The position numbers and the translations under genes were made by a program. 64,000 bases of DNA from Candidatus Saccharimonadales bacterium (lineage in GTDB: Bacteria > Patescibacteriota > Saccharimonadia > Saccharimonadales > UBA10212), in NCBI GenBank assembly GCA_049521895.1, contig JBEKOJ010000001.1, positions 162,717-226,716 of the forward strand, given 5' to 3'. Every line of letters begins with the position of its first letter. Position 1 is the first letter of the stretch. This document shows positions 1,680 to 58,320 of the stretch, piece after piece. The notes below the pieces were generated by a model that saw only the letters and a program-made list of their open reading frames with translations, searched no databases and was not told where the DNA came from.

Positions 1680-3080
1680 CTACGTCCGCGACCATATGGG
1701 GCCTCTGGACGTGTCATTGATCTCTATACCCTGCTCTTTGAGCTTATCGCGTAGCTCATCAGCCAATGCCCAATTGCCTGAGTCGCGGGCTTGTTCCCTT
1801 TGTGCGATCATTCCCTTCTGTTGAGACGCCAGGTCTTCTGAGCGAAGCCTTAGCCCTAGAATATCGTTCAGCCATTGAATCAAAGCAATAAATGCCTTAC
1901 GGCTGGTATGACTGACGCCGCTCGTTTCAATAGCCGTAGCTAGAGAACTTAAGGCTACCAACGCCAACGGAGTATTGAGGTCATTTTCCAGAGCTTCCTG
2001 AATGGCCTGCTTATGGCTGTCGAGCGCTCCGGCAGTAATCGCCGTTTGGCTATCGGTGGTCTGCCACTGCTGGTCGGCCATTGACCGGTAGGACAACAGA
2101 CGATTTTGTGCGGCCGCCAGTTCATCCCAGTTGAATTTGGACTGGGTGCGATAGTGCGATTGGAGAACCAGTAAGCGCAAGGCATCAAGACTGTAGCCTT
2201 TTTGCTCGATGTCTTCGAGAGTGATGAAATTACCCGCGCTCTTAGCCATTTTTTGCCGGTCTACGAGTATATGGTTGGTATGCATCCAATACCGAGCCAA
2301 CGGCTTGCCGGTCACGGCTTCTGACTGGGCGATTTCATTGCTGTGATGGATCGGCACGTGATCTATGCCGCCGGAGTGGATATCGATAGTTTCGCCCAAG
2401 TATTTCATTATCATTGCCGAACACTCTATGTGCCAGCCGGGGAAACCCTTGCCCCAGGGGCTATCCCACTCCATATCGCGCTTACTGCCACGGGGCGAGA
2501 ATTTCCACAGGGCGAAATCGGAGTGATGCTGTTTTTGCGGATTAGATTCTATCCGCTCACTTGACTGTTGTTCGTCTAAATCCAAGCGGGCAAAATCGGC
2601 GTATTTGGGGAACTTACTAGTGTCATAATATAAGCCGTCGTCAATTTGGTAGGTATAGCCCTTCTCTTGCAGTTGTTTTATCAACTCAATCTGCTCATTT
2701 ATGTGCTCGGTAGCCCGTGGCAGATGATCTGGCCAGGCGATGCTGAGGCGTTCCAAACCTTTTAGGAAATAGTCGGTATAAAATTTGGCGACCTCCCAGG
2801 CACTTTTACCTTCGCGTCGGGCACTTTTTTCCAGCTTATCTTCACCCTCGTCGGCATCACTGACTAGATGCCCTACATCGGTAATATTTAATACCCACTT
2901 GGGTCGGTAGCCGGCCAGCCTAAGCGTTCGGATAAGCAAATCATAGCGGATAAAGGTAAACCAGTTGCCGACATGGGGATAATCGTAAACCGTCGGGCCG
3001 CAAGTATAAACGGTTACAACTGGCGGATTCAACGGCGCGAAATCTTCTACTTGTCTGGACAGTGTGTTATATAGTTTCAT
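1680..3080 (-). CDS. cysS: Cysteine--tRNA ligase
   Basis: The N-terminus MKLYNTLSRQ..YTCGPTVYDYPHVGN carries the HIGH-type motif, and KMAKSAGN is the KMSKS motif. Length is 466 aa. Confidence 0.95.
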   Translation of the reverse strand: MKLYNTLSRQVEDFAPLNPPVVTVYTCGPTVYDYPHVGNWFTFIRYDLLIRTLRLAGYRPKWVLNITDVGHLVSDADEGEDKLEKSARREGKSAWEVAKFYTDYFLKGLERLSIAWPDHLPRATEHINEQIELIKQLQEKGYTYQIDDGLYYDTSKFPKYADFARLDLDEQQSSERIESNPQKQHHSDFALWKFSPRGSKRDMEWDSPWGKGFPGWHIECSAMIMKYLGETIDIHSGGIDHVPIHHSNEIAQSEAVTGKPLARYWMHTNHILVDRQKMAKSAGNFITLEDIEQKGYSLDALRLLVLQSHYRTQSKFNWDELAAAQNRLLSYRSMADQQWQTTDSQTAITAGALDSHKQAIQEALENDLNTPLALVALSSLATAIETSGVSHTSRKAFIALIQWLNDILGLRLRSEDLASQQKGMIAQREQARDSGNWALADELRDKLKEQGIEINDTSRGPIWSRT

Positions 3081-4124: not shown

Positions 4125-4730
4125 TTACATTGTTTGTCTGCCTTCCAACGCGCGTGTCAATGTGATTTGATCAGCATATTCTAAATCTACTCCCACTGGC
4201 AGACCACGAGCCAGCCTGGTAATTTTAATTGGTTTTTTACCTATTTGCTGACTAATTAGCAACGCGGTGCTTTCACCTTCTACGCTAGCATTGGTGGCTA
4301 AAATCAACTCTTTAACTTCATCTTTGTCGATACGTGCTATTAGCTCAGCAATGTGTAGCTGCTCTGGCCCGATTCCATCGATTGGCGATACCAGACCTCC
4401 GAGCACGTGGTAAGTCCCAGAAAAGCTATTAGTTTTTTCCAATGCGACAATATCAAATGGGTCGGCTACTACAGCTACAATTTTTTTACTGCGTCTGGGG
4501 TCGCTATATAAAGGGCTTAGCTTTTGCCCTTTTTCAATTAGCGCAAATGTTACCGGGCAGTACGATACGTTTTGGTGTAAGCGCTTTAAGCTGTCAATTA
4601 GCCCTAGGGTTTTATCAGGAGTGCTGCGCAGCAAATGATAAGCGTAACGCTCGGCAGTGCGCGGGCCGACTCCCGGCAGTAAACTAAAAGCGTCAATTAC
4701 ATCCTGTAGGGGCTGGGGTATCACCGTCAT
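4125..4730 (-). CDS. recR: Recombination protein RecR
   Basis: 201 aa. The N-terminal helix-hairpin-helix (LPGVGPRTAERYAYHLL) and a Toprim-like C-terminal region match RecR. Confidence 0.9.
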   Translation of the reverse strand: MTVIPQPLQDVIDAFSLLPGVGPRTAERYAYHLLRSTPDKTLGLIDSLKRLHQNVSYCPVTFALIEKGQKLSPLYSDPRRSKKIVAVVADPFDIVALEKTNSFSGTYHVLGGLVSPIDGIGPEQLHIAELIARIDKDEVKELILATNASVEGESTALLISQQIGKKPIKITRLARGLPVGVDLEYADQITLTRALEGRQTM

Positions 4731-4742
4731 AAAATCCGACCT

Positions 4743-5039
4743 TTATAGCCCGAGGTTGCTAAGTGCCCCCATCATTGGCTGCATTTTTTCGGCGGCTAAT
4801 TGTTGGCTACGGTTGATAGCTTCCTTGACGGCCTCTTCTAACCACATTTCTAGCTGGTGTATGTCATCAAGATCCACGGTTTCCGGGTCTATATTGATTT
4901 TTTTAATTTTTTGCTCGCCGCTAATTTCTACTTTCACTGCGCCATCACCGGCTTCTACGGTTATAATTTCTTTTTGCAGCTCTTTTTGCAATTTTCTGGC
5001 GCGCATCAAAAGCTTGGCCTGGTCAAACTTACTCATCAC
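4743..5039 (-). CDS. ybaB: Nucleoid-associated protein YbaB/EbfC family
   Basis: 98 aa. Shows the YbaB pattern (..VEAGDGAVKVEISGEQKIKKINIDPE..) and the conserved ybaB-recR adjacency. Confidence 0.85.
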   Translation of the reverse strand: MMSKFDQAKLLMRARKLQKELQKEIITVEAGDGAVKVEISGEQKIKKINIDPETVDLDDIHQLEMWLEEAVKEAINRSQQLAAEKMQPMMGALSNLGL

Positions 5040-5057
5040 TAGTGTTCCTTTCAGTGC

Positions 5058-6245
5058 TTATTTTAACACGTAAAGTTGCTTGGTCGATGGCGTGTGTGGC
5101 CAGACTACCAGAGAGTACTTGAGCCCATATAGTACTTGCAACCCGACAAGGCAGGCCATAAGTATGAGGGCGAAACTCAGAGGTAAGGGATTTCGTGGGA
5201 AGACGCTGCGCCATTCAATATACAAATAGCGTAAGCCTGCACCGATTAAAGTTGTCAAGGCCGGCAGACACAAAGTAAGCAGTAGAAAATTGCTATTAAA
5301 ACCGGCAAAAATTATCGCAACTACAATCAGCGTCAGTAAAGAGGCCATTTCACGCCGCGCCTTAGTCCACATGGCATAGGTGCCAAACACTATCAAAGCA
5401 ATCTGAATGATATCAAGAAGCGGTAAGCGCCCTATTATTAGCGGGTTGTGTGTACGTACTCGCCAAACTAGCGCCAAAGCCGACCAGCCAATTGATTTCA
5501 TTGTATCTCCTATGCCCATCCAATGCGCGGGTATGAGCAGCAAGCCGCGGTAAATAGAGATGTCCCCCACTAACGCCCATACCAATGGCATGATCAGCAA
5601 GATGAGAATCAGCAAGCTCAAGATCTGGATCTTACGGCTAATCAATCGGATCAGATTCAAAAGCCGTTTGCGCAATAGTAAAGCCCCGATCAGCATTAGC
5701 CAGGCCATACCAGGGACATAAAAACTCAGGGCGCTTATTGCAACTAGTCCCAGCCAAGCCGCGTTAGGTTGGTGTCTCCGCCTGGTCAGCCAGACATAAG
5801 CTGCTATAACCATAACCGGCATCAGCAGCATTACATCGGGTGTAGCGGTTCTAGCCAACAGAACCATTAGCGGTGTGGTGGCGAATATTAAAGAACTAAA
5901 AACACCAATAGTCAGGCCAAACCAGGTTTTCATCAGCCAGAAAGTACAGGCTACAAATAAGATCGCTATGACTACCGAGGCCAGCCGCATGCTGAAAAAA
6001 CCATGGTAACCGGCCTTTTGGGCAAGATATTGTAGCAAGCGTTGCGGCGCATTAATCGGATTAGACAACAGATTGTGTATAGATTGCGTACTTGATCTAG
6101 CGGCGGCTTCGGCTGGACTAAAACCAGGGGTTAAAGAAGCCAGCCGCCAGAAATAAATAATAAAACTAGCTGCTAGTAGCAACACGGCAACACTCAGGTT
6201 CTTTAGGTTTAATGTGCCCGCCCAACCTTTGATTTTTTTGAGCAT
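5058..6245 (-). CDS. Polytopic membrane protein, possible GT-C type glycosyltransferase (function uncertain)
   Basis: 395 aa with about 10 hydrophobic segments. It only loosely resembles ArnT/PMT-like proteins, and I recognised no catalytic motif. Confidence 0.55.
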   Translation of the reverse strand: MLKKIKGWAGTLNLKNLSVAVLLLAASFIIYFWRLASLTPGFSPAEAAARSSTQSIHNLLSNPINAPQRLLQYLAQKAGYHGFFSMRLASVVIAILFVACTFWLMKTWFGLTIGVFSSLIFATTPLMVLLARTATPDVMLLMPVMVIAAYVWLTRRRHQPNAAWLGLVAISALSFYVPGMAWLMLIGALLLRKRLLNLIRLISRKIQILSLLILILLIMPLVWALVGDISIYRGLLLIPAHWMGIGDTMKSIGWSALALVWRVRTHNPLIIGRLPLLDIIQIALIVFGTYAMWTKARREMASLLTLIVVAIIFAGFNSNFLLLTLCLPALTTLIGAGLRYLYIEWRSVFPRNPLPLSFALILMACLVGLQVLYGLKYSLVVWPHTPSTKQLYVLK

Positions 6246-6264
6246 ATGCTAAAAGTATAACAGT

Positions 6265-7632
6265 TTAATTCTCGAACGGCTGTTGGTGTTTTTTATCAAG
6301 GTCGCGGAAACGCTGGCGCAACATGTCAAAGTAAATTTCTAGGCTGCCTGTGGGACCGTTGCGGTGCTTCTTAATATATAGATCGGTGATATTGGCCCTG
6401 TCAGTATTCGGGTTGTAGTATTCCTCGCGGTACAGAAAAATTACTACATCCGCATCCTGTTCAATAGAGCCGGATTCACGCAAGTCTGCCAACTGCGGTA
6501 TTTGCGGTGAACGACTTTCTACTGATCTGTTCAGCTGGCTTAGTGCCACAATCGGTACGTTAAGCTCGCGGGCCAGAATCTTTAAATTCCGGCTGATTTC
6601 GGAAATTTCCTGTACGCGATTAGCCACTGTCGCGAAACGTGAGCCACCGCTCATAAGTTGGAGATAGTCTACCATGATGACCGCCAGCGGGTGCTGATGG
6701 TGCATACGGCGTGATTTGGTGCGTAAATCACTGACCGTGATACCGGAAGTATCATCAACAAAAATCGACGCCTCGGCAAGTTCGCCCATAGCGGTGCTAA
6801 GCCTTTCAAAATCTTTATCCTCAAGGCCTTCACCAGTTCTTAGTTTCCAAGCATCAACTCCCGCCTCAGCGGCCAGCAACCTATCCACTAGCTGTTCCTT
6901 ACTTTGTTCTAGGCTGAAGATCAGGACGGCACCCTGCTTAGCTTTTGTAGCTACATCCAGAGCTATATTTAGCATCAGGGCGGTTTTACCCATAGAAGGA
7001 CGACCGGCTATAACTATCAGATCAGACCGTTGTAACCCGGCTATTTTAGCGTCTAAATCGCGCAGTCCGGTTGGAATACCGCGTATGCCACCCTTATGGC
7101 GATGAAGATCATCAAGCCGGTCAAAACTGTCACTTAAGATCGACTCCAAACTAATCACGTCTTGTCGAACATGCTTCTGGCTGACTTCGAATAACTTGCT
7201 TTCGGATTCTTCTATCAGTTCCTGCAGACTTTTCTTCTCGTCGTTGCCAATGCTAGCGATATCTTTGGACACGGCTATCAAACGCCGCCGGATGGCTTTA
7301 TCGGCTACAATTTGGGCGTACTGTTCCAGGTGGGCAGCTGTGGGCACAAAATTGGTTAACTCGGTTAAGTAACTAGCTCCGCCGATACTGTCTAGTTGCT
7401 TATTGTTCTTGAGCTGCTCGCTTAGCGTTAAGATATCTACCGGACTACGCTTATCGTGCAAGGCCTGCATGGCGTGAAAAATTGCTCTGTGGCGCTGGTC
7501 GAAAAAATCATCGCTACTGACTATATCGCCAATTTTAACCAGAGCGTCGGTATCTATCAGTACGCTGCCTAGTAAGCTGGCTTCTACGTCCAGGTTCTGC
7601 GGTAAGTCGTTAGCAGCGGTTGTCGGATCCAT
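6265..7632 (-). CDS. dnaB: Replicative DNA helicase DnaB
   Basis: 455 aa. Has Walker A (GRPSMGKTA), the DnaB motifs (..IMVDYLQLM.., ..SQLNR..) and the N-terminal domain LPQNLDVEASLLGSVL. Confidence 0.95.
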   Translation of the reverse strand: MDPTTAANDLPQNLDVEASLLGSVLIDTDALVKIGDIVSSDDFFDQRHRAIFHAMQALHDKRSPVDILTLSEQLKNNKQLDSIGGASYLTELTNFVPTAAHLEQYAQIVADKAIRRRLIAVSKDIASIGNDEKKSLQELIEESESKLFEVSQKHVRQDVISLESILSDSFDRLDDLHRHKGGIRGIPTGLRDLDAKIAGLQRSDLIVIAGRPSMGKTALMLNIALDVATKAKQGAVLIFSLEQSKEQLVDRLLAAEAGVDAWKLRTGEGLEDKDFERLSTAMGELAEASIFVDDTSGITVSDLRTKSRRMHHQHPLAVIMVDYLQLMSGGSRFATVANRVQEISEISRNLKILARELNVPIVALSQLNRSVESRSPQIPQLADLRESGSIEQDADVVIFLYREEYYNPNTDRANITDLYIKKHRNGPTGSLEIYFDMLRQRFRDLDKKHQQPFEN

Positions 7633-9860: not shown

Positions 9861-10352
9861 CTAAGCTAGTTCTACGGTCGCGCCAGCTTCTTCGAGCGTC
9901 TTTTTGGCCACTTCAGCTTCTTCTTTTGACGCCTTCTCTTTAATGGTTTTGGGGGCACCGTCCACCAAGGCTTTGGCCTCACCCAATCCTAACCCGGTGA
10001 TATCCTTAACGGCTTTAATGACGGCTACTTTTTGAGCGCCGGCATCTTTAAGAATCACATCGTACTCGTTTTTCTCTTCTGCTGCTGCACTTTCACCGCT
10101 GGCGGCCGGAGCGGCCGTGACGGCTACCGCCGGAGCAGCGGCCGAAACACCCCAGTGCTCCTCAAGAAATTTCACAAACTTACTGATCTCAAGAGCGCTA
10201 AGGTTATCTAGCTCTTTGACTAATCCGGCAAACTCTTTAGGAACCTCAACTTTGGTTTCGACTTTCTTGGACTCTGTCTTTGGAGTCTCCGCTTTAGGTT
10301 CCTCGGTTTTTACTTCGGTTACCTCGTTTTTTACTTCGTCGTTGTCTGCCAT
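9861..10352 (-). CDS. rplL: 50S ribosomal protein bL12 (L7/L12) with about 40-aa K/E-rich N-terminal extension
   Basis: The C-terminal domain ..[44 protein letters not shown].. is canonical bL12, and the gene follows rplJ. Confidence 0.95.
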
Positions 10353-10906: not shown

Positions 10907-10930
10907 ATTATCTCTTGAGCATTATTTTCT

Positions 10931-10958
10931 ATAAAAAGACCTTGGCGATTTACCAAGG
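10931..10958 (-). terminator. Putative intrinsic attenuator hairpin in the rplJ leader
   Basis: The minus strand reads CCTTGG-taaatcg-CCAAGG followed by TCTTTTTAT, about 25 nt upstream of the rplJ ATG. Confidence 0.45.
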
Positions 10959-11094
10959 ACTACAGAAGATGTCTGCACAACAATACATTGCGCGTTAACC
11001 TCGGTAGCAGATTAAGCCCGCTTGTCGCGGGCAGCTACTGTCTTTGGCAATCTAATAGTAGATTAGCACAACCTGCAACTTCTTACAAGTCCTA
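10959..11094 (-). promoter_or_regulatory. Candidate L10(-L12) autoregulatory leader
   Basis: This 188-nt untranslated gap holds nested stems (GTAGC..GCCCGC-gacaa-GCGGGC..GCTAC) upstream of the attenuator. The position matches known rplJ leaders, but identity was not verified. Confidence 0.35.
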
Positions 11095-13104
11095 TCAATT
11101 CGTCTTTTTAGAGCGTTGCCGGGGCTTTGTTTTTTTATCAGTTTTAGCCTGGGTTAAGCTTAATAACGCCTTGGCCGATTGTTTTTCTAGGGCTGCCGCC
11201 AGGAGAGGGTGTACTTCCCGGACTTTTTCCCTCAAAGCCGCGATTAACTTATCTAAACCGGAGGCTCGCTGAATTGGCGTGCTGGGAAAGAACAGCCTTT
11301 GGGCGTTAGTACTGAACTGCCAGCGCGATTTATGCCCTAGCAAGGCTGCATAAGCGGCCTCTCTACCCCTGTTGGCGGATTGCAATTCGCTAAATAGTTT
11401 CAGGCTCCCATCGAAACATTCGATGAATTCATTTTCCAACCCGACTCGCTCTACCGGTTCAGGTAATTCATAGCCATAACGGGGAGTAGCTGATTGCAAC
11501 CTTGGGTCATCCACCAACCCGCTAGCTATAGCCTCGGATATTGTCGACCGGTCGCTCAAAGCATCCCAACGGTATCGTACTTGCTCCAGTACGCTATTTG
11601 ATGAATCTGCCACCAGAGTACGTAGGGCTGTCTCTTTTCGTTCGTAGGTCCAGCGCTCAACTCCATCAGATAGCTCATTTCTCCCCAAATCGGTATACGG
11701 ATAAATACCATCGACTAGCAGTGAAAATTCACTTCTGGGCCAAAATTCCAACAACTTAAGGGGTTCGCCGGCCAATGCTAAATTAGTGGGTAGATCAGTT
11801 GATTTGAGGAGTGCAGTCAGCTTGCTAGTTGACGGATGTGCATGAGGGACTGCCTCGGCCTTAAACGCAACCCTCAGTATCTTAGCTAAAGCCTTAAATT
11901 CCGGCAGCTGATTAGCTTCTAGTTGTAGCGCGAGTAAATTGATTGACGCAGAGCTGCCGACTACCGTACCAGATGTTAGGGCAGCCAGCGGTATAGTTGG
12001 TTGTAAGCAATGATGGATTAGATCTTCTAGTTTGGGAGTGTTCTGGCTGGCACTCTTCTTTTGCTGCTCAAAAAGTCTAAGTATGCCAGTTTGCATCTGC
12101 CGCTGTAGCACAATGAGTTTCTTCATAGCACTGTTAAAGTTCTTAGCAAGTAACGGGCTTAGGGTCGGCGGTAAGTAATATTGATATTTGCCGTCCTTTG
12201 CGCCCCAGTCCCATGGGTGTTTGAAACGTAGTAATATGCCTGGGGCAGCCTCAATTACGCTGGCGGCTAGTAAGCTTAGTTGGGTAATTTCAACCGTTAA
12301 ATGGTCGCTTTCTGCCTCGGGCGCAGCGGCCGGATGGGTGTGAGGTCTTTCGTGGTCTTCCTCTAATTTAACCACTGTTTTTCTACCCTTATGAGGAGGG
12401 CTGGCTGGCAAGAGTGGCTGAATGACGTCCCAGATTCGGTTATTTATAGTTGGGATATCTAGCAAACGATTTCGCTCGGTACACTCGATGGCTACAAAAT
12501 CCTTCGGAAATAGTTGGCAAAGCAAGTCATAGGCCTTAAGCGTTGCGCGCAAGTGATGGGTGTCTTTCTCGTGCTCGTCTGGTTTGATTCCTGTTTTATG
12601 CGCTCGAGTTTTAATTAAGCGCTCAGCCGTTTCAGTCGGTACTCGTAAGAATAAATTGATATCCGGCCGCGGGATACCCAGCAGGCTGAATTCCAAGCTG
12701 TCAGCCCATACAAAAAATCCTCTCTGTTCAGTCTCATCTTCAAATTTAGATCCTTGGTGGGCCATGTTAGAGCCGGCGTATCTATTGGAGAGAACGATTT
12801 TACCGCGCCTAAGCGCCTGGCGTATCTCTGGTGCTGCCTCATAGCGGTCTAGGGCGTAAAACATTGAAGCTGCATAGGGGTTAATTTGGCTCGCTGGTCC
12901 ATAATGGCCGCCTAGATAGCGCTGTACGAAGTGGCTGGATGGTTGGTCGTACCGCGGAAAATCAAACACCTCGACTTCATAGCCGACAGCTCTTAGCCGC
13001 TCAGCAAGCAAGTTAAACTGGGTGTTCTTACCGGAGCCGTCAGAGCCTTCTAAAACGATGAATTTACCAGGGTATTCTTGCATGACGCTATGCTCATATC
13101 CCAC
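11095..13104 (-). CDS. tmk: Fusion protein: N-terminal thymidylate kinase plus C-terminal ThyX-like (Thy1 fold) region
   Basis: Residues 1-215 match dTMP kinase (FIVLEGSDGSGKNTQ P-loop, DRY motif). The C-terminal ~430 aa carries ThyX-like strings: RYRWDALSDRS (compare RHRxxSxxxxSxR) and REAAYAALLGHKSRWQFSTNAQRL (compare ARxxLPxxxxTxxxxxxNxRxL). Confidence 0.7.
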   Translation of the reverse strand: MGYEHSVMQEYPGKFIVLEGSDGSGKNTQFNLLAERLRAVGYEVEVFDFPRYDQPSSHFVQRYLGGHYGPASQINPYAASMFYALDRYEAAPEIRQALRRGKIVLSNRYAGSNMAHQGSKFEDETEQRGFFVWADSLEFSLLGIPRPDINLFLRVPTETAERLIKTRAHKTGIKPDEHEKDTHHLRATLKAYDLLCQLFPKDFVAIECTERNRLLDIPTINNRIWDVIQPLLPASPPHKGRKTVVKLEEDHERPHTHPAAAPEAESDHLTVEITQLSLLAASVIEAAPGILLRFKHPWDWGAKDGKYQYYLPPTLSPLLAKNFNSAMKKLIVLQRQMQTGILRLFEQQKKSASQNTPKLEDLIHHCLQPTIPLAALTSGTVVGSSASINLLALQLEANQLPEFKALAKILRVAFKAEAVPHAHPSTSKLTALLKSTDLPTNLALAGEPLKLLEFWPRSEFSLLVDGIYPYTDLGRNELSDGVERWTYERKETALRTLVADSSNSVLEQVRYRWDALSDRSTISEAIASGLVDDPRLQSATPRYGYELPEPVERVGLENEFIECFDGSLKLFSELQSANRGREAAYAALLGHKSRWQFSTNAQRLFFPSTPIQRASGLDKLIAALREKVREVHPLLAAALEKQSAKALLSLTQAKTDKKTKPRQRSKKTN

Positions 13105-23589: not shown

Positions 23590-24693
23590 CTAATCTTTCG
23601 GCCGTAAGCCCACCGCCTTTTGTACTTTCAGCAGAGCTGCATTGGCAACTTCATTCATGGCTTTTTCATCGTCAGCTAGTTTTTGCATTAGCTTATCTTG
23701 GTTGACCTGGGCTAATTTAGCCTGGAAATCAGCCAAGAAAACTTTTACAGCGTCCGATACGGCTTTTTTGAGCTCGCTATAGCCAGATTTGCCCTGCCAT
23801 TGCCCATTTACCGCTGTCTGAGGCTTATCTAATAACAGGGCTAAGATTTGCAGCAAGTTAGTGACGCCGGGCTGCTTTTCCCAGTCATAGCTAATTGATT
23901 CTAGTGAATCGGTAGTGGCGCCCAAAACTTTTTTGGCGGCTTCGTCTGGACTATCACTAAGCATAATCGTACCTGCCGGGTCTTCTACGCTCTTGCTCAT
24001 CTTCTTTTCAGGGTTGCGCAGGCTGCGGATACGAACCGGCTCACTATGGCCGGCGAATTCCATCTGTTTGGCGTTATCCTCGGGCAGTACAAATAAATCA
24101 TCGCCGAATTTATTATTTATCCGAATGGCCAGATCGCGGGTAAATTCCACGTGTTGTCGTTGGTCTTCGCCTACCGGGACCCACTTAGCGCCGTAAAGTA
24201 GGATATCCGCAGCCATCAGCACCGGATAATTAAATAGGCCTGCTGTTACGCCAGCCTTCCGAATTTTTACATCTATCGTATCTTCTTTATCGAAATCCAC
24301 GTCGACAGCACCAGTTGACTCTATTAAGTTTAGCGACTTATCTTTGAATTCTGTCATGCGCGATAACTCACCAAAGTGGGCAAAGCAATCAAGGACCCAT
24401 GTCATCTCGGAATGGGCCGGGATATAGCTTTGGCGGTAAATAAAGGTATTGGGCTCTTCGATATCCAGTCCGGCTGCTACAAAAACCTTCAAATTCTTGA
24501 GGGACTGGTCATATAAATTTCCGTGATCAATAGGCGTAGTAAAGCTGTGCAGGTCTGGTACAAACATGTTCAGCTGATACTGCCCAGCGTGCTTTTTTTG
24601 CAGCTCCACCATCGGTAGAATAGCACCCAAATAGTTGCCTAGGTGAAACTCGGCATTAGATCGCAGCCCGGTTAAAATGACCTCTTTGCTCAT
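23590..24693 (-). CDS. trpS: Tryptophan--tRNA ligase
   Basis: Class I motifs are present: FHLGNYLG (HIGH-like) and KMSKS. The architecture is TrpRS-like, 367 aa. Confidence 0.9.
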   Translation of the reverse strand: MSKEVILTGLRSNAEFHLGNYLGAILPMVELQKKHAGQYQLNMFVPDLHSFTTPIDHGNLYDQSLKNLKVFVAAGLDIEEPNTFIYRQSYIPAHSEMTWVLDCFAHFGELSRMTEFKDKSLNLIESTGAVDVDFDKEDTIDVKIRKAGVTAGLFNYPVLMAADILLYGAKWVPVGEDQRQHVEFTRDLAIRINNKFGDDLFVLPEDNAKQMEFAGHSEPVRIRSLRNPEKKMSKSVEDPAGTIMLSDSPDEAAKKVLGATTDSLESISYDWEKQPGVTNLLQILALLLDKPQTAVNGQWQGKSGYSELKKAVSDAVKVFLADFQAKLAQVNQDKLMQKLADDEKAMNEVANAALLKVQKAVGLRPKD

Positions 24694-29556: not shown

Positions 29557-31083
29557 TTATTTCTTGCGGCGGGGGAGACCAATATGAGGGATAAACCGCA
29601 GTCTCTTGGCGCCTAGCGCGGCCGTGCCACCAGGCCCCGGTTCGTAAAAATAATCCGGCTGTTCATACTGATCGTAGGTAATCATCAACGCGCGAGATTC
29701 TACCTGGCGCATAGTTTCCAGCGATACGGATACCAGGATCAAAATACTAGTACCGCCAATAGCAATATTTTGGTTGATGTACACCTGCGCGATGATGGGT
29801 AGTACTGCTAACAACCCTAGTGCAGTAGCCCCAAATAGCGTAAGCCGGTTAACTATATGGCTAAGATACTTTTCTGTTTGTTTGCCAGAGCGGACATCAG
29901 CAATAAATCCGCCTTGTTTTTGCAGATTTTCGGCAATCTCCTTAGAGTTGAAAGTAACACTGGTATAAAAATAGGTAAATACAAACACTAAAAAGAAGTA
30001 GGTGCCCGGATATATCCAAGCTTTCCAGCCCTCGGTTGCAAAAGTAAGCCTGGACGGCGTCTGGAATAGCTGGCTTAAGCTTACGCCTATATGTTGCCAG
30101 TGGGTCGTGGCCACAAATTCTATCCCCTTCCCGTGCGTTAAAATTTGCCCAAGAAAATTAGGTACACTCAAAAAAGCCACGGCAAAGATAATAGGAATAA
30201 CACCGGCAGTAATAAGTTTAACTGGTAGGGTGGTAGTGACGCCGCCATAAGTGCGGTTCCCTTGCACGCGTTTGGCATAGTTGACAGTTAAGCGTCTGGA
30301 GGCCTCGTTAAGTTTGACTACCGCCCATGTCACAAATAGCGTAGCAAATGTAACGATAGCGAATACAAGCAAACCATGCCGGCTGAAATGGCGGTGAAAA
30401 ATCGTAACTTTATCGGCGACAACGCTGCTACTATAGGCCGTGACGCCCCAGATTTCGTGAATCAAGGTTGGCAGCCGGCTGACGATGCCTACGGTAATCA
30501 GCAACGATATACCGTTGCCAATAGACCGCTCGGTAATCAGCTCGCCCAGCCACATCAATACCATAGCGCCACCGGTTAGAGCGGCGATCATCAAAACCCA
30601 CTGAATCATAGAGGTGCTAGACGTTATGTCGCCTAAGCCGCCCAAACTCTGAGCCTCCTGACGGATAAGGTAAATCATGCCGACTGACTGAATTACTGCA
30701 AGCGGGAAAGTCAGCATTCGGGTGTACTGGTTGATTTTTTTGCGACCGTATTCGCCCTCCTTATTCATGTTTTCCAGCTTAGGAATAGCTTTGGTGAGCA
30801 ACTGCATGATAATGCTGGCGTTAATGTACGGCGCCAAACCAACCAGCATAATAGAAAAGTTGGCTAGCGCGCCGCCGGACAGTACATTCAAAAAGCCCAG
30901 CAATTGGTTAGAATTGGTCTGGTTAAACAAATTCTGCAGAACTTGCTTTAGGGTGTGGGGATCACTAAGCGGCACGGGAACGTGCGCCATGATGCGGAAA
31001 ACCAGCAGCATACCCAAAACCGCCAAAATGCGGTTGCGCATCTCTTTATGGCCCAACGATTTGAGAATTATGCCCCAGTTCAC
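29557..31083 (-). CDS. secY: Preprotein translocase subunit SecY (extended C-terminus)
   Basis: 508 aa with 10 TM segments and SecY motifs (..LGMLLVFRIMAHVPVP.., ..GGTSILILVSVSLETMRQVES..). Confidence 0.95.
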   Translation of the reverse strand: MNWGIILKSLGHKEMRNRILAVLGMLLVFRIMAHVPVPLSDPHTLKQVLQNLFNQTNSNQLLGFLNVLSGGALANFSIMLVGLAPYINASIIMQLLTKAIPKLENMNKEGEYGRKKINQYTRMLTFPLAVIQSVGMIYLIRQEAQSLGGLGDITSSTSMIQWVLMIAALTGGAMVLMWLGELITERSIGNGISLLITVGIVSRLPTLIHEIWGVTAYSSSVVADKVTIFHRHFSRHGLLVFAIVTFATLFVTWAVVKLNEASRRLTVNYAKRVQGNRTYGGVTTTLPVKLITAGVIPIIFAVAFLSVPNFLGQILTHGKGIEFVATTHWQHIGVSLSQLFQTPSRLTFATEGWKAWIYPGTYFFLVFVFTYFYTSVTFNSKEIAENLQKQGGFIADVRSGKQTEKYLSHIVNRLTLFGATALGLLAVLPIIAQVYINQNIAIGGTSILILVSVSLETMRQVESRALMITYDQYEQPDYFYEPGPGGTAALGAKRLRFIPHIGLPRRKK

Positions 31084-41460: not shown

Positions 41461-42672
41461 CTAAACAGTAAACTGACCGTTCTTATAGATCACTTCTTGA
41501 CTGCCATCAGACAATGTAGCGGTAACAATCCGATCGGTAGTAGAAATCATATCAACGTGAATAGCTGACTCGTTATAGCCTAACTTTTTCGATAGCGACG
41601 GAGTCATTTTCTTTGTATCGCCATCGAATGTATCGTGATAGCTTTTACCAACCGCTAGGTGGGTATTGCCAAACCGGCCGCCCATATTTTCGTCAAACAG
41701 CGTTTCAGCCATAAATTTGGTGATATGGCTCAGGCGCCTATCAGTCAATGAGAATTCGCCGATTTGTGACGCACCGTCATCCGTAGCTAGCATTTCCCGC
41801 AAGAGTTTCTGATTTTTGCTGGCTGTGGCTCTAACTACCCGACCCACCTTAAAAGTAAGCTCTATGTCCTGGACGCGCGGGCCATAGTAATACAGTGGTT
41901 GGTTAAAGCGGATCCGGCCTTCCGTACCATGCCAATCCGGTGAGGTAAAGACCTCAAAGCTTGGTATATTGCGTCCGCCACCACCCAACCATTTGCGCTT
42001 CTTTCCCATTGTTATATGCAAATCGACGTCTTTGCCAACCACATGCAGTTTATCTATTCGCAGTCTGGTAAGCCTTGTTGCTACGCGCTGGACTTCTTTG
42101 CTGGTCTTGCGCCACTCGGCGATCGGATCAGATTTGTCTAAGTAACAGGCTTTTATTATTTGACGCCAATGGCCTTTCTCGCTAAGCCCAGCCTCTTTGG
42201 CCATACTTGGCGTGCCGTAAAGAGCCAGAGTCCATGTGTATTTGCCAATGTTTTCTTTGTCGTTAAGCCAATCGGCGAGAGGTTTGGCGCTCTTTTGGGT
42301 GAGCATTATCTTTTTTGGATCTATTTTGTCCAGTTCATGTACATCATGTTCAGCGATTACGGCAATACGGTGGTCAACTTGCTCAACTAGTCCCTTGAAG
42401 TACTTGTCGAGAAATGCAACCAGCTGCTGGTGATTAGCGTGTTCGTAAAAGTATTTTGCAGCGCCGGACATATCGTCCGCCAGACCATTAATAAGAATCC
42501 CGCCGCTATCTATGATATTTTTTCGCAAAGCCCGATAAAAAGGCAGAGCCGACAGTGGCGATTGCAAAAAAACCACCTCCCCGGGCTTGATACCGCTGCC
42601 ACCACCCAGCGCAAAATTTACCAAAACCTTGGCATACTTATCAAGAATCTCTTCTGGGGGCGTATAGCTCAT
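41461..42672 (-). CDS. M29 family aminopeptidase (AmpS/PepS-like)
   Basis: 403 aa. The N-terminus ..LDKYAKVLVNFALGGGSGIKPGEVVFL.. and ..FDENMGGRFGNTHLAVGKSY.. resemble aminopeptidase T/S. Confidence 0.8.
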   Translation of the reverse strand: MSYTPPEEILDKYAKVLVNFALGGGSGIKPGEVVFLQSPLSALPFYRALRKNIIDSGGILINGLADDMSGAAKYFYEHANHQQLVAFLDKYFKGLVEQVDHRIAVIAEHDVHELDKIDPKKIMLTQKSAKPLADWLNDKENIGKYTWTLALYGTPSMAKEAGLSEKGHWRQIIKACYLDKSDPIAEWRKTSKEVQRVATRLTRLRIDKLHVVGKDVDLHITMGKKRKWLGGGGRNIPSFEVFTSPDWHGTEGRIRFNQPLYYYGPRVQDIELTFKVGRVVRATASKNQKLLREMLATDDGASQIGEFSLTDRRLSHITKFMAETLFDENMGGRFGNTHLAVGKSYHDTFDGDTKKMTPSLSKKLGYNESAIHVDMISTTDRIVTATLSDGSQEVIYKNGQFTV

Positions 42673-56202: not shown

Positions 56203-56802
56203 TTATCTGCTGGTAATCACCTTATCGACCAGGCCATATTTCTTGGCTTCTTCGGCAGTCATCCAATAGTCTCGGTCAACATCTTTTTCGATTTTACTGA
56301 CCGGCTGGCCGGTGTTTTTTGCTAAAATCTCGTTGAGTAGCCTCTTCAACCGCAGGCCTTCTTTTAGGTCAATCTCCAGGTCGCTGATTTTAGCCCGCTG
56401 GGCGGCACTACTTGGTTGGTGAATCATCACCGTAGCATGCGGTAACAGCAGTCGCTTGCTCTTGGTACCCGAACTCAGCAGGATAGCCGCCGCGCTGGCA
56501 TTAACACCGATACCGACAGTTTGAATGTCAGATTTGACAAATTTCATGGTGTCATAAATACCAAGCGCATGGTAAACGCTACCACCGGGGCTATTTATGT
56601 AAAAGATGATGTCTTTAGTCGGATCTTGGTTCTCTAGAAAAAGCATCTGGGCAACTACCAAGTTGGCTGTGTGCTCATTAACTTCGTCACCTAAGAAGAT
56701 AATGCGGTCTTTAAGCAGACGGCTATAGATATCGTAAGCCCGCTCAAAGCGCCCCTCTTGCTCAATAACGGTTGGCACTAAGATCTGTGATTTTGTGGAC
56801 AT
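56203..56802 (-). CDS. clpP: ATP-dependent Clp protease proteolytic subunit
   Basis: 199 aa with ..INSPGGSV.., the active-site region ..[11 protein letters not shown].. (Ser) and MIHQP (His). Confidence 0.96.
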
Positions 56803-56810
56803 GCATATAG

Positions 56811-56838
56811 TTTATAAAAATTAGCACTCGTAAGTCAA
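56811..56838 (-). promoter_or_regulatory. clpP promoter TTGACT-N16-TATAAA, 8 nt from the ATG
   Basis: The minus strand reads cTTGACTtacgagtgctaattttTATAAActatatgcATG. The -35 box and spacer lie inside the CIRCE palindrome. Confidence 0.5.
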
Positions 56839-56847
56839 GAGTGCCAA
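56821..56847. promoter_or_regulatory. CIRCE-like inverted repeat (HrcA operator) TTAGCACTC-N9-GAGTGCCAA
   Basis: Matches 17 of 18 arm positions of the CIRCE consensus TTAGCACTC-N9-GAGTGCTAA, with exact 9-nt spacing. Confidence 0.65.
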
Positions 56848-56999
56848 CACATGTTGCAGATAGGGTTGGTCTGGGTAGGTTTAGCTTGTTTGATTTTTCC
56901 GAAGCCCTGAGCGAGATGTATCCGTTGATACATTGAGCTGGACTGGAGGAAAAAGCAGCAAGATAAGCCTGTTCCAGGCAGGCCTAGCGGTGATATGTG

Positions 57000-57030
57000 T
57001 TAGTACTCTTGGCTTGGTCAAGAGTGCCAA
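57000..57030. repeat. Degenerate second copy of the CIRCE-like element (13-nt spacer)
   Basis: TTAGTACTC-ttggcttggtcaa-GAGTGCCAA shares the exact 14-mer GTCAAGAGTGCCAA with 56834-56847. It lies directly after the tig stop. Confidence 0.45.
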
Positions 57031-57039
57031 TTTAATCGG

Positions 57040-58320
57040 TTACTTCGAGGAGTAGCCAACCAGCTTTTGGAGGACTTTCTCGGTCAGTAAGCGGGCGGCA
57101 ATATCCTGGCGGTTTTCCGGTTTATCTAATTCGGCCTGCATCTGAGGGTCTTGGTACTGGCCCTTTAGCAATTGGATCCGTACCTCCAACTCTTCAGGGG
57201 TAACTTGGACATCTTCGCGTTCAGCTATCTCGTTTAGTACTAAGCCACCCTTAACACGCTCGGTGGCCGCAGTCCGGTTGCGGTCGCGGTGCTGTTGTTC
57301 GGTTATTCCTTCTTGATCGAGGTGTTCTTGCCACGTCTGGCCGCGGTAAATCAGATTACGTTTTTCTTCCTCTTCCATACGCATAATCTGGTCGATGACC
57401 AGGCTTTCGGGAATTTCCAAGCTAGATTTTGCAACTATTGCCTGGACTAGCTGATTTTCGTAATCGCGGTTGGCGTTGGCTTGCTGCTCAGCGGCCAGTT
57501 GCTTTTTAATATCGCCCTTCAGCTCGGCGATGCTCTTAAACGGCCCAGCTTTAGTGGCAAAGGCATCATCCAGTTTAGGTTCCTCTAGCTTTGTGACTTT
57601 TTGGGCATCGACTTTAAAGGTCACGCTTTTATTCTGCAGGGCGGCCACAGCGTAGTCTTTGGGAAACTTAATGCTAAATTCTTTGGATCCGCCAGCTTTT
57701 ATACCAACTAGGTGGTTCTCAAAACCTGGGATGAAATTATTACTGCCCAGTAGCAGCGGGAAGTTTTTGCCGTCTGCGCCGGCTACTGGTTTACCAGCCG
57801 AATCTTTGCCGGCAAAATCAATAGTTACCTCGTCGCCCACTTTAGCCGGCCGGTCAACAGCTGTTCTTACCGCCGCACGTTTTTGCAGCGATGCCAGCAC
57901 CTCATTAACATCTTTAGCAATAATGCTTACTGGCTTTTTGGCCAGTTTTATCTTTGTGTAATCAGCCAATTTAATCGGTCTGATTATGTCCATTTCAACA
58001 TCGAATTCCAGCTCAGTATAGGGCACAAATTTCTTAACCTGCACGTTTGGCTGGCCAACGGGGTGGAGTTTTTCAGACCCAACCGCCCGGCGGTATAGCT
58101 CGTTTAGGGCATGCTCCATAAATTCATCCAGCAGCGCCCGCTGGTCAATGTGTTTTTCTATTACAGCCGCAGGGGCTTTGCCGGCGCGGAATCCTGGTAT
58201 TTTAGCCTCTCTGGCAAAATGGCCCAGTACGTGCCGTTTAATCGGCTCTAGATCCGTGGCGTTGCCATTGATTTTAAGCGCCGCCCTGGTCGGGCTAATA
58301 TCTGTTCTGGTTATTTGCAC
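57040..58320 (-). CDS. tig: Trigger factor (GTG start)
   Basis: 426 aa. The N-terminal ribosome-binding motif ..GFRAGKAP.., the central FKBP-like domain and the conserved tig-clpP order match trigger factor. Confidence 0.92.
   Translation of the reverse strand: MQITRTDISPTRAALKINGNATDLEPIKRHVLGHFAREAKIPGFRAGKAPAAVIEKHIDQRALLDEFMEHALNELYRRAVGSEKLHPVGQPNVQVKKFVPYTELEFDVEMDIIRPIKLADYTKIKLAKKPVSIIAKDVNEVLASLQKRAAVRTAVDRPAKVGDEVTIDFAGKDSAGKPVAGADGKNFPLLLGSNNFIPGFENHLVGIKAGGSKEFSIKFPKDYAVAALQNKSVTFKVDAQKVTKLEEPKLDDAFATKAGPFKSIAELKGDIKKQLAAEQQANANRDYENQLVQAIVAKSSLEIPESLVIDQIMRMEEEEKRNLIYRGQTWQEHLDQEGITEQQHRDRNRTAATERVKGGLVLNEIAEREDVQVTPEELEVRIQLLKGQYQDPQMQAELDKPENRQDIAARLLTEKVLQKLVGYSSK

Follow-up and report, generated by a model that had tools for sequence, protein, structure and literature searches.

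In Bacillus subtilis, the repressor HrcA governs dnaK and groESL through the CIRCE operator (controlling inverted repeat of chaperone expression; Zuber & Schumann 1994 and Mogk et al. 1997, cited in PMC3192767 and PMC7737663). In Mycoplasma pneumoniae, a CIRCE lies between tig and lon, and the HrcA regulon comprises DnaK, DnaJ, ClpB, GroEL/ES, Lon, PepA, and Pip (PMC7737663). Across HrcA regulons, groESL is the sole member that is constant, and clpP has sigma-32 promoters in delta-proteobacteria (PMC545781). The usual control of clpP is by sigma-32 or CtsR, in Proteobacteria and Firmicutes (PMC545781, PMC3842655). In this study, we analyzed a 64,000-nt stretch of DNA from a Candidatus Saccharimonadales bacterium (contig JBEKOJ010000001.1, positions 162,717 to 226,716; hereafter the window), in which a CIRCE palindrome lies immediately upstream of clpP. 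Based on the sequence and its comparison with relatives, we consider it highly probable that this palindrome is a working HrcA operator built into a sigma-70-type clpP promoter. To our knowledge, gene regulation in Saccharibacteria and other candidate phyla radiation (CPR) bacteria is almost unstudied. No paper on HrcA in Saccharibacteria, Patescibacteria, or TM7x was found in the literature searched, where the few papers containing both terms dealt with unrelated topics. In a TM7x transcriptome, clpB and clpP rise together (bioRxiv 10.1101/2022.03.25.485537), which is compatible with co-regulation and indicates nothing specific.

Compared with the B. subtilis system, Saccharibacteria have the same 9-N9-9 inverted repeat, consensus, and repressor family, and the negative feedback via GroEL/ES is presumably alike. 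They differ in the predicted protease target, the position of the operator over the -35 box, the predicted leaderless mRNA, and an HrcA that is about 110 aa shorter. The B. subtilis CIRCE sits between the transcription start and the start codon. M. pneumoniae resembles Saccharibacteria in its reduced genome, in the HrcA control of chaperones and the main quality-control protease that we predict here, and in the order of trigger factor gene, CIRCE, and protease gene. However, the protease there is Lon, whereas here it is ClpP/ClpC. In addition, the tig promoter also drives M. pneumoniae lon, which has CIRCE immediately upstream, whereas clpP in Saccharibacteria has its own predicted promoter embedded in the operator. 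In Streptococcus salivarius, clpP is reportedly regulated by both CtsR and HrcA (Chastanet & Msadek 2003, cited in PMC3842655). This places clpP within the HrcA regulon, as predicted for Saccharibacteria, but the control is dual with CtsR and belongs to that one species, whereas the Saccharibacteria arrangement is conserved class-wide. No CtsR box was evident at the clpP locus of the window, where no formal CtsR-box search was made. Stress induction, predicted here, would be common to Saccharibacteria clpP and the clpP genes under CtsR or sigma-32, but the regulator and the logic differ.

The gene order around the site is hisS-tig-CIRCE-clpP-rpoB-rpoC, with 237 nt between tig and clpP and 433 nt between clpP and rpoB. 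clpP (56203..56802, minus strand; ATG at 56800-56802) encodes 199 aa and matches PF00574 and NF001368 (286 bits). The trigger factor gene tig (57040..58320, minus strand; Pfam Trigger_N/FKBP_C/Trigger_C) is co-directional and upstream. The palindrome, a predicted HrcA operator with no strand of its own, occupies 56821..56847 and ends 18 nt upstream of the clpP ATG. The plus strand reads TTAGCACTC-gtaagtcaa-GAGTGCCAA, which matches the CIRCE consensus TTAGCACTC-N9-GAGTGCTAA at 17 of 18 arm positions with the exact N9 spacing. A preliminary description of this DNA had reported the match, and its coordinates and sequence statements were all correct. On the clpP (minus) strand the operator reads TTGGCACTC-ttgacttac-GAGTGCTAA, and the layout up to the start codon is TTGGCACTC TTGACTtac GAGTGCTAA ttttTATAAActatatgc ATG. 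The one mismatch gives the clpP-strand arm variant TTGGCACTC, which is also the natural arm in six relatives (L004, L008, L017, L031, L041, and L053). The same variant occurs in the groESL site of Desulfovibrio (PMC545781, Table 8). The CIRCE was unique in the 64 kb by a pattern search allowing up to three mismatches and by a separate scan allowing up to four. In dinucleotide-preserving shuffles of the window, a mean of 0.04 matches with up to three mismatches was expected by chance, and 4 of 100 shuffles contained any match. Neither the tig-clpP spacer nor the clpP-rpoB spacer gave a match in Rfam.

The preliminary description had proposed looking for the palindrome upstream of clpP in related genomes. 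The window was compared with the 56 closest clpP loci drawn from GTDB species genomes (L004-L058 and L060; 57 sequences and 911,369 bases with the window), nearly all labelled Candidatus Saccharibacteria, Saccharimonadales, or Saccharimonas. The palindrome was present at 56 of the 57 loci, and L056 was the sole locus without CIRCE at clpP. These 56 matches with up to three mismatches were the only ones in the set, one per locus, all immediately upstream of clpP and none elsewhere. Thirty of them were perfect, while 16 had one mismatch, 8 had two, and 2 had three. tig was upstream of clpP in 53 of the 56 loci, and rpoB was downstream in 49. The same search found no CIRCE at clpP in about 23 non-Saccharibacteria clpP loci; none was present in four more distant CPR loci (ClpP 55-57% identical) or in the non-CPR clpP loci returned. 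When the sites were aligned on the palindrome, the information content was 1.87 and 1.81 bits per position in the two arms, compared with 0.16 in the 30 nt upstream and 0.25 in the 45 nt downstream. The arm consensus across relatives was identical to CIRCE over all 18 arm positions, and the arms were kept as exact sequence with no stem-like covariation. Near-invariant arms between unconserved flanks point to a sequence-specific footprint rather than to conservation of a stem. These results indicate that the predicted clpP operator is canonical and under strong purifying selection.

A TTGA(C) -35-like box was found within the 9-nt CIRCE spacer at all 56 sites. In register A, TTGAC occupied spacer positions 1-5 (25 loci, the window included), and in register B it occupied spacer positions 5-9 (29 loci); two loci had intermediate registers. 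The -10 tracked the -35 with the same 4-nt shift: register A has it at +6 to +11 past the right arm, and register B at +10 to +15. An xAnnnT hexamer was located 16-18 nt past the embedded -35 in 56 of 56 promoters, and it conformed to TAnnnT in 55, with 17 nt as the commonest distance. In a rough neighbour-joining tree of 48 taxa based on Tig plus RpoB, the register switched at least 13 times, while the operator arms stayed fixed. These results indicate that the predicted -35 has shifted many times from one end of the spacer to the other with the arms unchanged. In the window, the promoter scan and the comparison with relatives both place the -35 box TTGACT at 56833..56838 (minus strand, register A). 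The -10 region (56809..56816, minus strand) holds two overlapping candidates, TATAAA at 56811-56816 with a 16-nt spacer and TAAACT at 56809-56814 with an 18-nt spacer, the latter chosen by the consensus promoter scan. The earlier claim that the operator lies on the core promoter was borne out by its orthologous position in 56 of 57 loci, its invariant arms, and a -35 that is always within the spacer.

The preliminary description had also regarded clpP as near-leaderless with no Shine-Dalgarno (SD) motif, and the relatives agree with this. The clpP ATG was 6-9 nt past the -10 in 35 of the 56 promoters, and 32 of those 35 had no SD-like motif. In six further promoters the distance was 10-15 nt. 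The remaining 15 had leaders of 23-117 nt, and all 15 contained an SD-like motif. This split is as expected if transcription starts about 7 nt past the predicted -10. In the window, the ATG is 6 nt after TAAACT and 8 nt after TATAAA, and no GGAG-type motif lies upstream. The pattern of a leaderless promoter is the lack of an SD together with a -10 box whose distance to the start codon is 5-9 nt. From the start-site split, we predict a leaderless clpP mRNA in the window, or a leader of 2 nt if TATAAA is in use. The same geometry was observed at many operon-first genes in the window, which have TAnnnT 5-9 nt before the start and no SD (e.g., 5058-6245, 23590-24693, 41461-42672, and 29557-31083), while internal ribosomal-protein genes have strong GGAGG motifs. 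Since this geometry is common among operon-first genes, the absence of an SD is a trait of the genome and not specific to clpP, and leaderless initiation seems to be common in this genome.

Six relatives (L005, at 9868-10000, L017, L009, L049, L041, and L023) had inserts of 90-117 nt that provide an SD between the clpP -10 and the ATG. Terminal inverted repeats (atgaatcccgtta...taacggg) are common to the inserts of L005 and L017 and hint at a small element that is mobile or structured.

HrcA was found across divergent Saccharibacteria groups by homologue searches. Two Saccharibacteria HrcA queries each returned at least 120 PF01628 clusters, and more than 240 clusters with PF01628 were listed overall. 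The names of several were Saccharibacteria, Saccharimonas, or Saccharimonadales, and the contigs of some reached 0.97 Mb. A homologue search with the B. subtilis sequence returned Bacilli only. The label Candidatus Saccharimonas was common to CIRCE-clpP loci (L019 and L023) and to HrcA matches. The HrcA of this lineage is short, with 231-248 aa and typically about 232 aa; examples are at L181 4378-5076, L210 10001-10714, and L144 271-981 (proteins P0158, P0225, and P0159, respectively). The 232-aa HrcA of L181 shares a cluster with a Saccharibacteria protein from NCBI. The short HrcA aligns to residues 3-120 and about 215-344 of B. subtilis HrcA, and its winged-helix domain is highly conserved in comparison with B. 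subtilis and Thermotoga maritima HrcA. Its predicted structure had a predicted local distance difference test (pLDDT) score of 88.7 and a predicted template modelling (pTM) score of 0.85. The best PDB match was 1stz, the crystal structure of T. maritima HrcA (E 3e-12), with a template modelling (TM) score of 0.77 over the query and 0.57 over the target. This asymmetry is as expected for an HrcA minus one domain. The central part that is missing is presumably the equivalent of the dimerizing domain inserted in T. maritima HrcA. Judged by PF01628 and by the predicted structure, the short HrcA appears to have the N-terminal winged helix and the GAF-like domain of the HrcA fold.

A metagenome scan for CIRCE with TTGAC in the spacer gave at least 120 loci. 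Among the matches listed, short hrcA accounted for at least about 20 of the genes 3' of CIRCE, and in many of these the ATG was about 20 nt past the operator, in a leaderless design like that of clpP. Also among the matches listed were at least about 10 dnaK, about 12 groES/groEL, and about 29 hsp20 genes, and at least 8 clpB, 8 clpC-like, 4 clpP, 3 rpoH-like, and 1 dnaJ genes. The occurrence of the -35 within CIRCE at many different genes points to a widespread design that is not particular to the clpP locus. Loci were tied to Saccharibacteria by exact-sequence cluster look-ups. L195 has a CIRCE in register B, TACAAT, and an SD-bearing leader, followed by groES, an open reading frame (ORF) of 56-64 aa, and groEL, and its GroEL is named 'chaperonin GroEL [Candidatus Saccharibacteria bacterium]'. 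L210, a metagenome-assembled contig in NCBI (797,647 bp), has a perfect CIRCE holding TTGACA, TACAAT, and a second CIRCE with three mismatches in the leader, followed by hrcA-grpE-dnaK-(NYN)-dnaJ. L217 has four CIRCE within 8 kb, one at hrcA, a tandem pair at dnaK, and one at dnaJ. CIRCE upstream of groES/groEL and of hrcA/dnaK are present in the lineage, in Saccharibacteria genomes other than that of the window.

Some further features of these chaperone loci were observed. Tandem CIRCE about 45-47 nt apart, start to start, occur at Saccharibacteria dnaK and hrcA promoters (L092, L143, L144 at 2960-3031, L153, L171, L189, L210 at 9911-9984, and L217 at 12254-12328). In these pairs the first CIRCE holds the -35 and the second is in the 5' leader; clpP has the first kind only. 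The ORF of 56-64 aa between groES and groEL resembles a single-pass membrane protein and is present in 3 of 4 Saccharibacteria-type loci (L195 at 4785-6854, L098, and L165), while L152 ends too early. groES starts with GTG in 3 of the 4 loci and with ATG in L165, after an SD-bearing leader.

A perfect CIRCE was also found between nusA and a clpC-like gene in 8 loci (L094, L110, L111, L137, L141, L177, L186, and L205), where the order continues with a membrane protein gene and then radA. The clpC-like ATPase has 823-834 aa (e.g., L186, CIRCE at 6888-6914 and clpC at 4333-6807), and its LGF/MGF motif is read as the ClpP-binding loop. The NusA of L110 is named Candidatus Saccharimonadales, and the NusA of L205 clusters with one named TM7 oral taxon 349. 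The CIRCE at clpC would place the partner ATPase of ClpP under the same operator as clpP. In the genome of the window, radA is located about 9 kb past the right end of the window (L216 1-1032; window-equivalent about 72.5-73.9 kb), convergent with a Transgly penicillin-binding protein gene, and the right 10-kb flank ends in it. Other Saccharibacteria have the same context at their clpC-radA loci. A CIRCE-clpC unit may therefore adjoin radA upstream, a few kb beyond the right flank, with clpC expected about 2-5 kb past radA (window-equivalent about 74-78 kb).

We considered whether the palindrome acts mainly as an RNA hairpin, either as an intrinsic terminator or as a 3'-end stabiliser of the hisS-tig transcript, with its likeness to CIRCE being incidental. 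The operator RNA does form a 10-bp stem (-12.6 kcal/mol, z -4.1) followed by UUUUUAU, and the co-directional tig is directly upstream in nearly all loci. However, at least five T within 6 nt past the stem were present at only 10 of 56 sites, and the terminator scan made no call at the palindrome. Intrinsic terminators are recognised by a GC-rich stem, a short loop, a U-run, and conservation based on pairing; here the loop is 9 nt long and holds the invariant TTGAC with a correctly spaced -10, and across 56 genomes the arms keep their exact sequence without covariation. Moreover, the same sequence heads the hrcA, dnaK, groES, and clpC operons. A primarily hairpin-based role is therefore unlikely. 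The suggestion in the preliminary description that the hairpin could also act as a terminator stood with regard to the stable hairpin and the U5 in this genome, but it found little backing in the relatives, where the T-run was kept in a minority and the arms showed no stem-like covariation. In this genome, the hairpin could secondarily attenuate read-through from tig. A match arising by chance in AT-rich intergenic DNA is a negligible prospect and is refuted by the comparative data. Such matches do occur in a few of the shuffled windows, but 56 of the 57 related loci have the site at the orthologous position, and the 911 kb contain no other.

The identity and the presence of the repressor were also weighed. 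The operator might be a relic, if the lineage uses HrcA and this organism has lost hrcA, leaving clpP constitutive from the embedded promoter. The single mismatch and the lack of hrcA in the approximately 84 kb of this genome examined would fit such a loss. We consider it quite unlikely, because the mismatch variant is frequent among natural arms, a site of 18 nt would decay in the absence of selection whereas the window site is as intact as those of its relatives, and HrcA is found across divergent Saccharibacteria groups. It is very unlikely that a regulator other than HrcA recognises the CIRCE-like palindrome. The lineage HrcA is truncated and under the NCBI equivalog cut-off, and its binding to the site is predicted; however, the consensus equals CIRCE at all 18 arm positions, the element heads hrcA itself and every classical HrcA target in the lineage, and the winged helix is highly conserved.

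A working HrcA operator within the clpP promoter remains the explanation that we prefer. In this model, an HrcA dimer kept active by GroEL/ES would bind the two arms flanking the -35 and block RNA polymerase. When unfolded proteins occupy GroEL/ES, HrcA would become inactive, and clpP would be derepressed together with the chaperone genes. These steps of repression and titration are taken from the established HrcA/CIRCE model, including the GroE titration model of Mogk et al. 1997 as cited in a passage of PMC7737663. Several points weigh against the model. The -10 spacing in the window is 16 or 18 nt, compared with the commonest 17 nt in relatives. About 95 central residues are missing from Saccharibacteria HrcA, and its DNA-binding mode is assumed. 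The short HrcA scores 174-180 bits on TIGR00331, below the cut-off of 197 for the full-length equivalog, which accounts for NCBI names such as 'HTH domain-containing protein'. Furthermore, the window and the 10-kb flanks on both sides yielded no hrcA, and the presence of HrcA in this genome is inferred from relatives. A Pfam scan of the first ten window ORFs found no hrcA, groES, or dnaK. As tblastn queries, HrcA of B. subtilis and of Saccharibacteria and the Escherichia coli proteins GroES, GroEL, and DnaK had no match in the window or, in the Saccharibacteria relatives, within 10 kb of clpP; among all loci searched, only L059 (Thermotogae, groES/groEL) and L075 (a weak DnaK-like match) were returned. 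The cluster members listed from the HrcA homologue searches included no HrcA on the contig of the window, tetranucleotide similarity assigned no chaperone locus to its genome, and viral-contig scans gave 4 irrelevant matches.

The CIRCE at hrcA-grpE, dnaK, dnaJ, groES-groEL, and clpC in the lineage suggest that ClpP and ClpC belong to one HrcA proteostasis regulon. The preliminary description had viewed clpP under CIRCE as a different wiring of the heat-shock regulon. At the level of the lineage this view was supported by the presence of HrcA and by CIRCE at hrcA, dnaK, dnaJ, groES, and clpC, but the wiring is less unusual than implied, given the precedents of M. pneumoniae lon and S. salivarius clpP. 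A wider proposal is put forward tentatively, with prospects a little short of even. It holds that a truncated HrcA of about 232 aa without the central insert is the master regulator of proteostasis in Saccharibacteria, governing the chaperones (hrcA-grpE, dnaK, dnaJ, and groESL) and the complete ClpC-ClpP protease in place of CtsR or sigma-32, through operators fused to leaderless-gene promoters with a mobile -35.

Taken as a sequence-based prediction, the site is a canonical operator on a non-classical target with precedent, conserved class-wide in a phylum that has been little studied. The finding leaves the known HrcA/CIRCE mechanism unchanged; it extends a well-known system and defines no new one. 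It provides a clear regulon prediction for the group, in which ClpCP appears to be linked to the chaperone network by a single repressor and a single 27-bp operator. A lineage with small genomes thus seems to run its main protease through the chaperone regulator, which would be the second example in reduced genomes, after Mycoplasma lon, of a quality-control protease under HrcA. The promoter-operator module is compact, with the -35 inside the operator and a predicted leaderless start, and could serve as a predicted stress-inducible promoter in cultivable strains.

Other features near the operator were noted. A second palindrome with CIRCE-like arms and 13-nt spacing, TTGGCACTCTTG-accaagc-CAAGAGTACTAA, lies 10 nt past the tig stop (57000..57030, minus strand) and has 14 nt in common with the clpP operator. 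Its hairpin (-11.3 kcal/mol, z -4.4) has no U-run. A similar N13 element is present in L058 (9755-9787), about 180 nt upstream of the main CIRCE, and a half copy is present in L008, about 106 nt upstream of clpP; in each case the element directly follows the stop codon of the ORF upstream of clpP. Full copies of TTGGCACTCTTG-N7-CAAGAGTACTAA were found only in this genome and L058 among the loci examined. A role as a second operator is unlikely in view of the N13 spacing, the occurrence in two genomes only, and the lack of a usable -10 after it, and the element is probably not a canonical operator.

Within clpP, GTTGGCACT (56771-56779, codons 8-11, LVPT) forms a perfect 9-nt inverted repeat with AGTGCCAAC in the operator arm (56840-56848). 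This repeat was considered as an operator half-site; since TTAGTGCCA recurs in relatives, it more probably arises from the conserved LVPTV codons. Elsewhere in the window, an ordinary ribosomal protein L10 leader was detected upstream of rplJ-rplL (10923-11065, minus strand; Rfam 55.9 bits).

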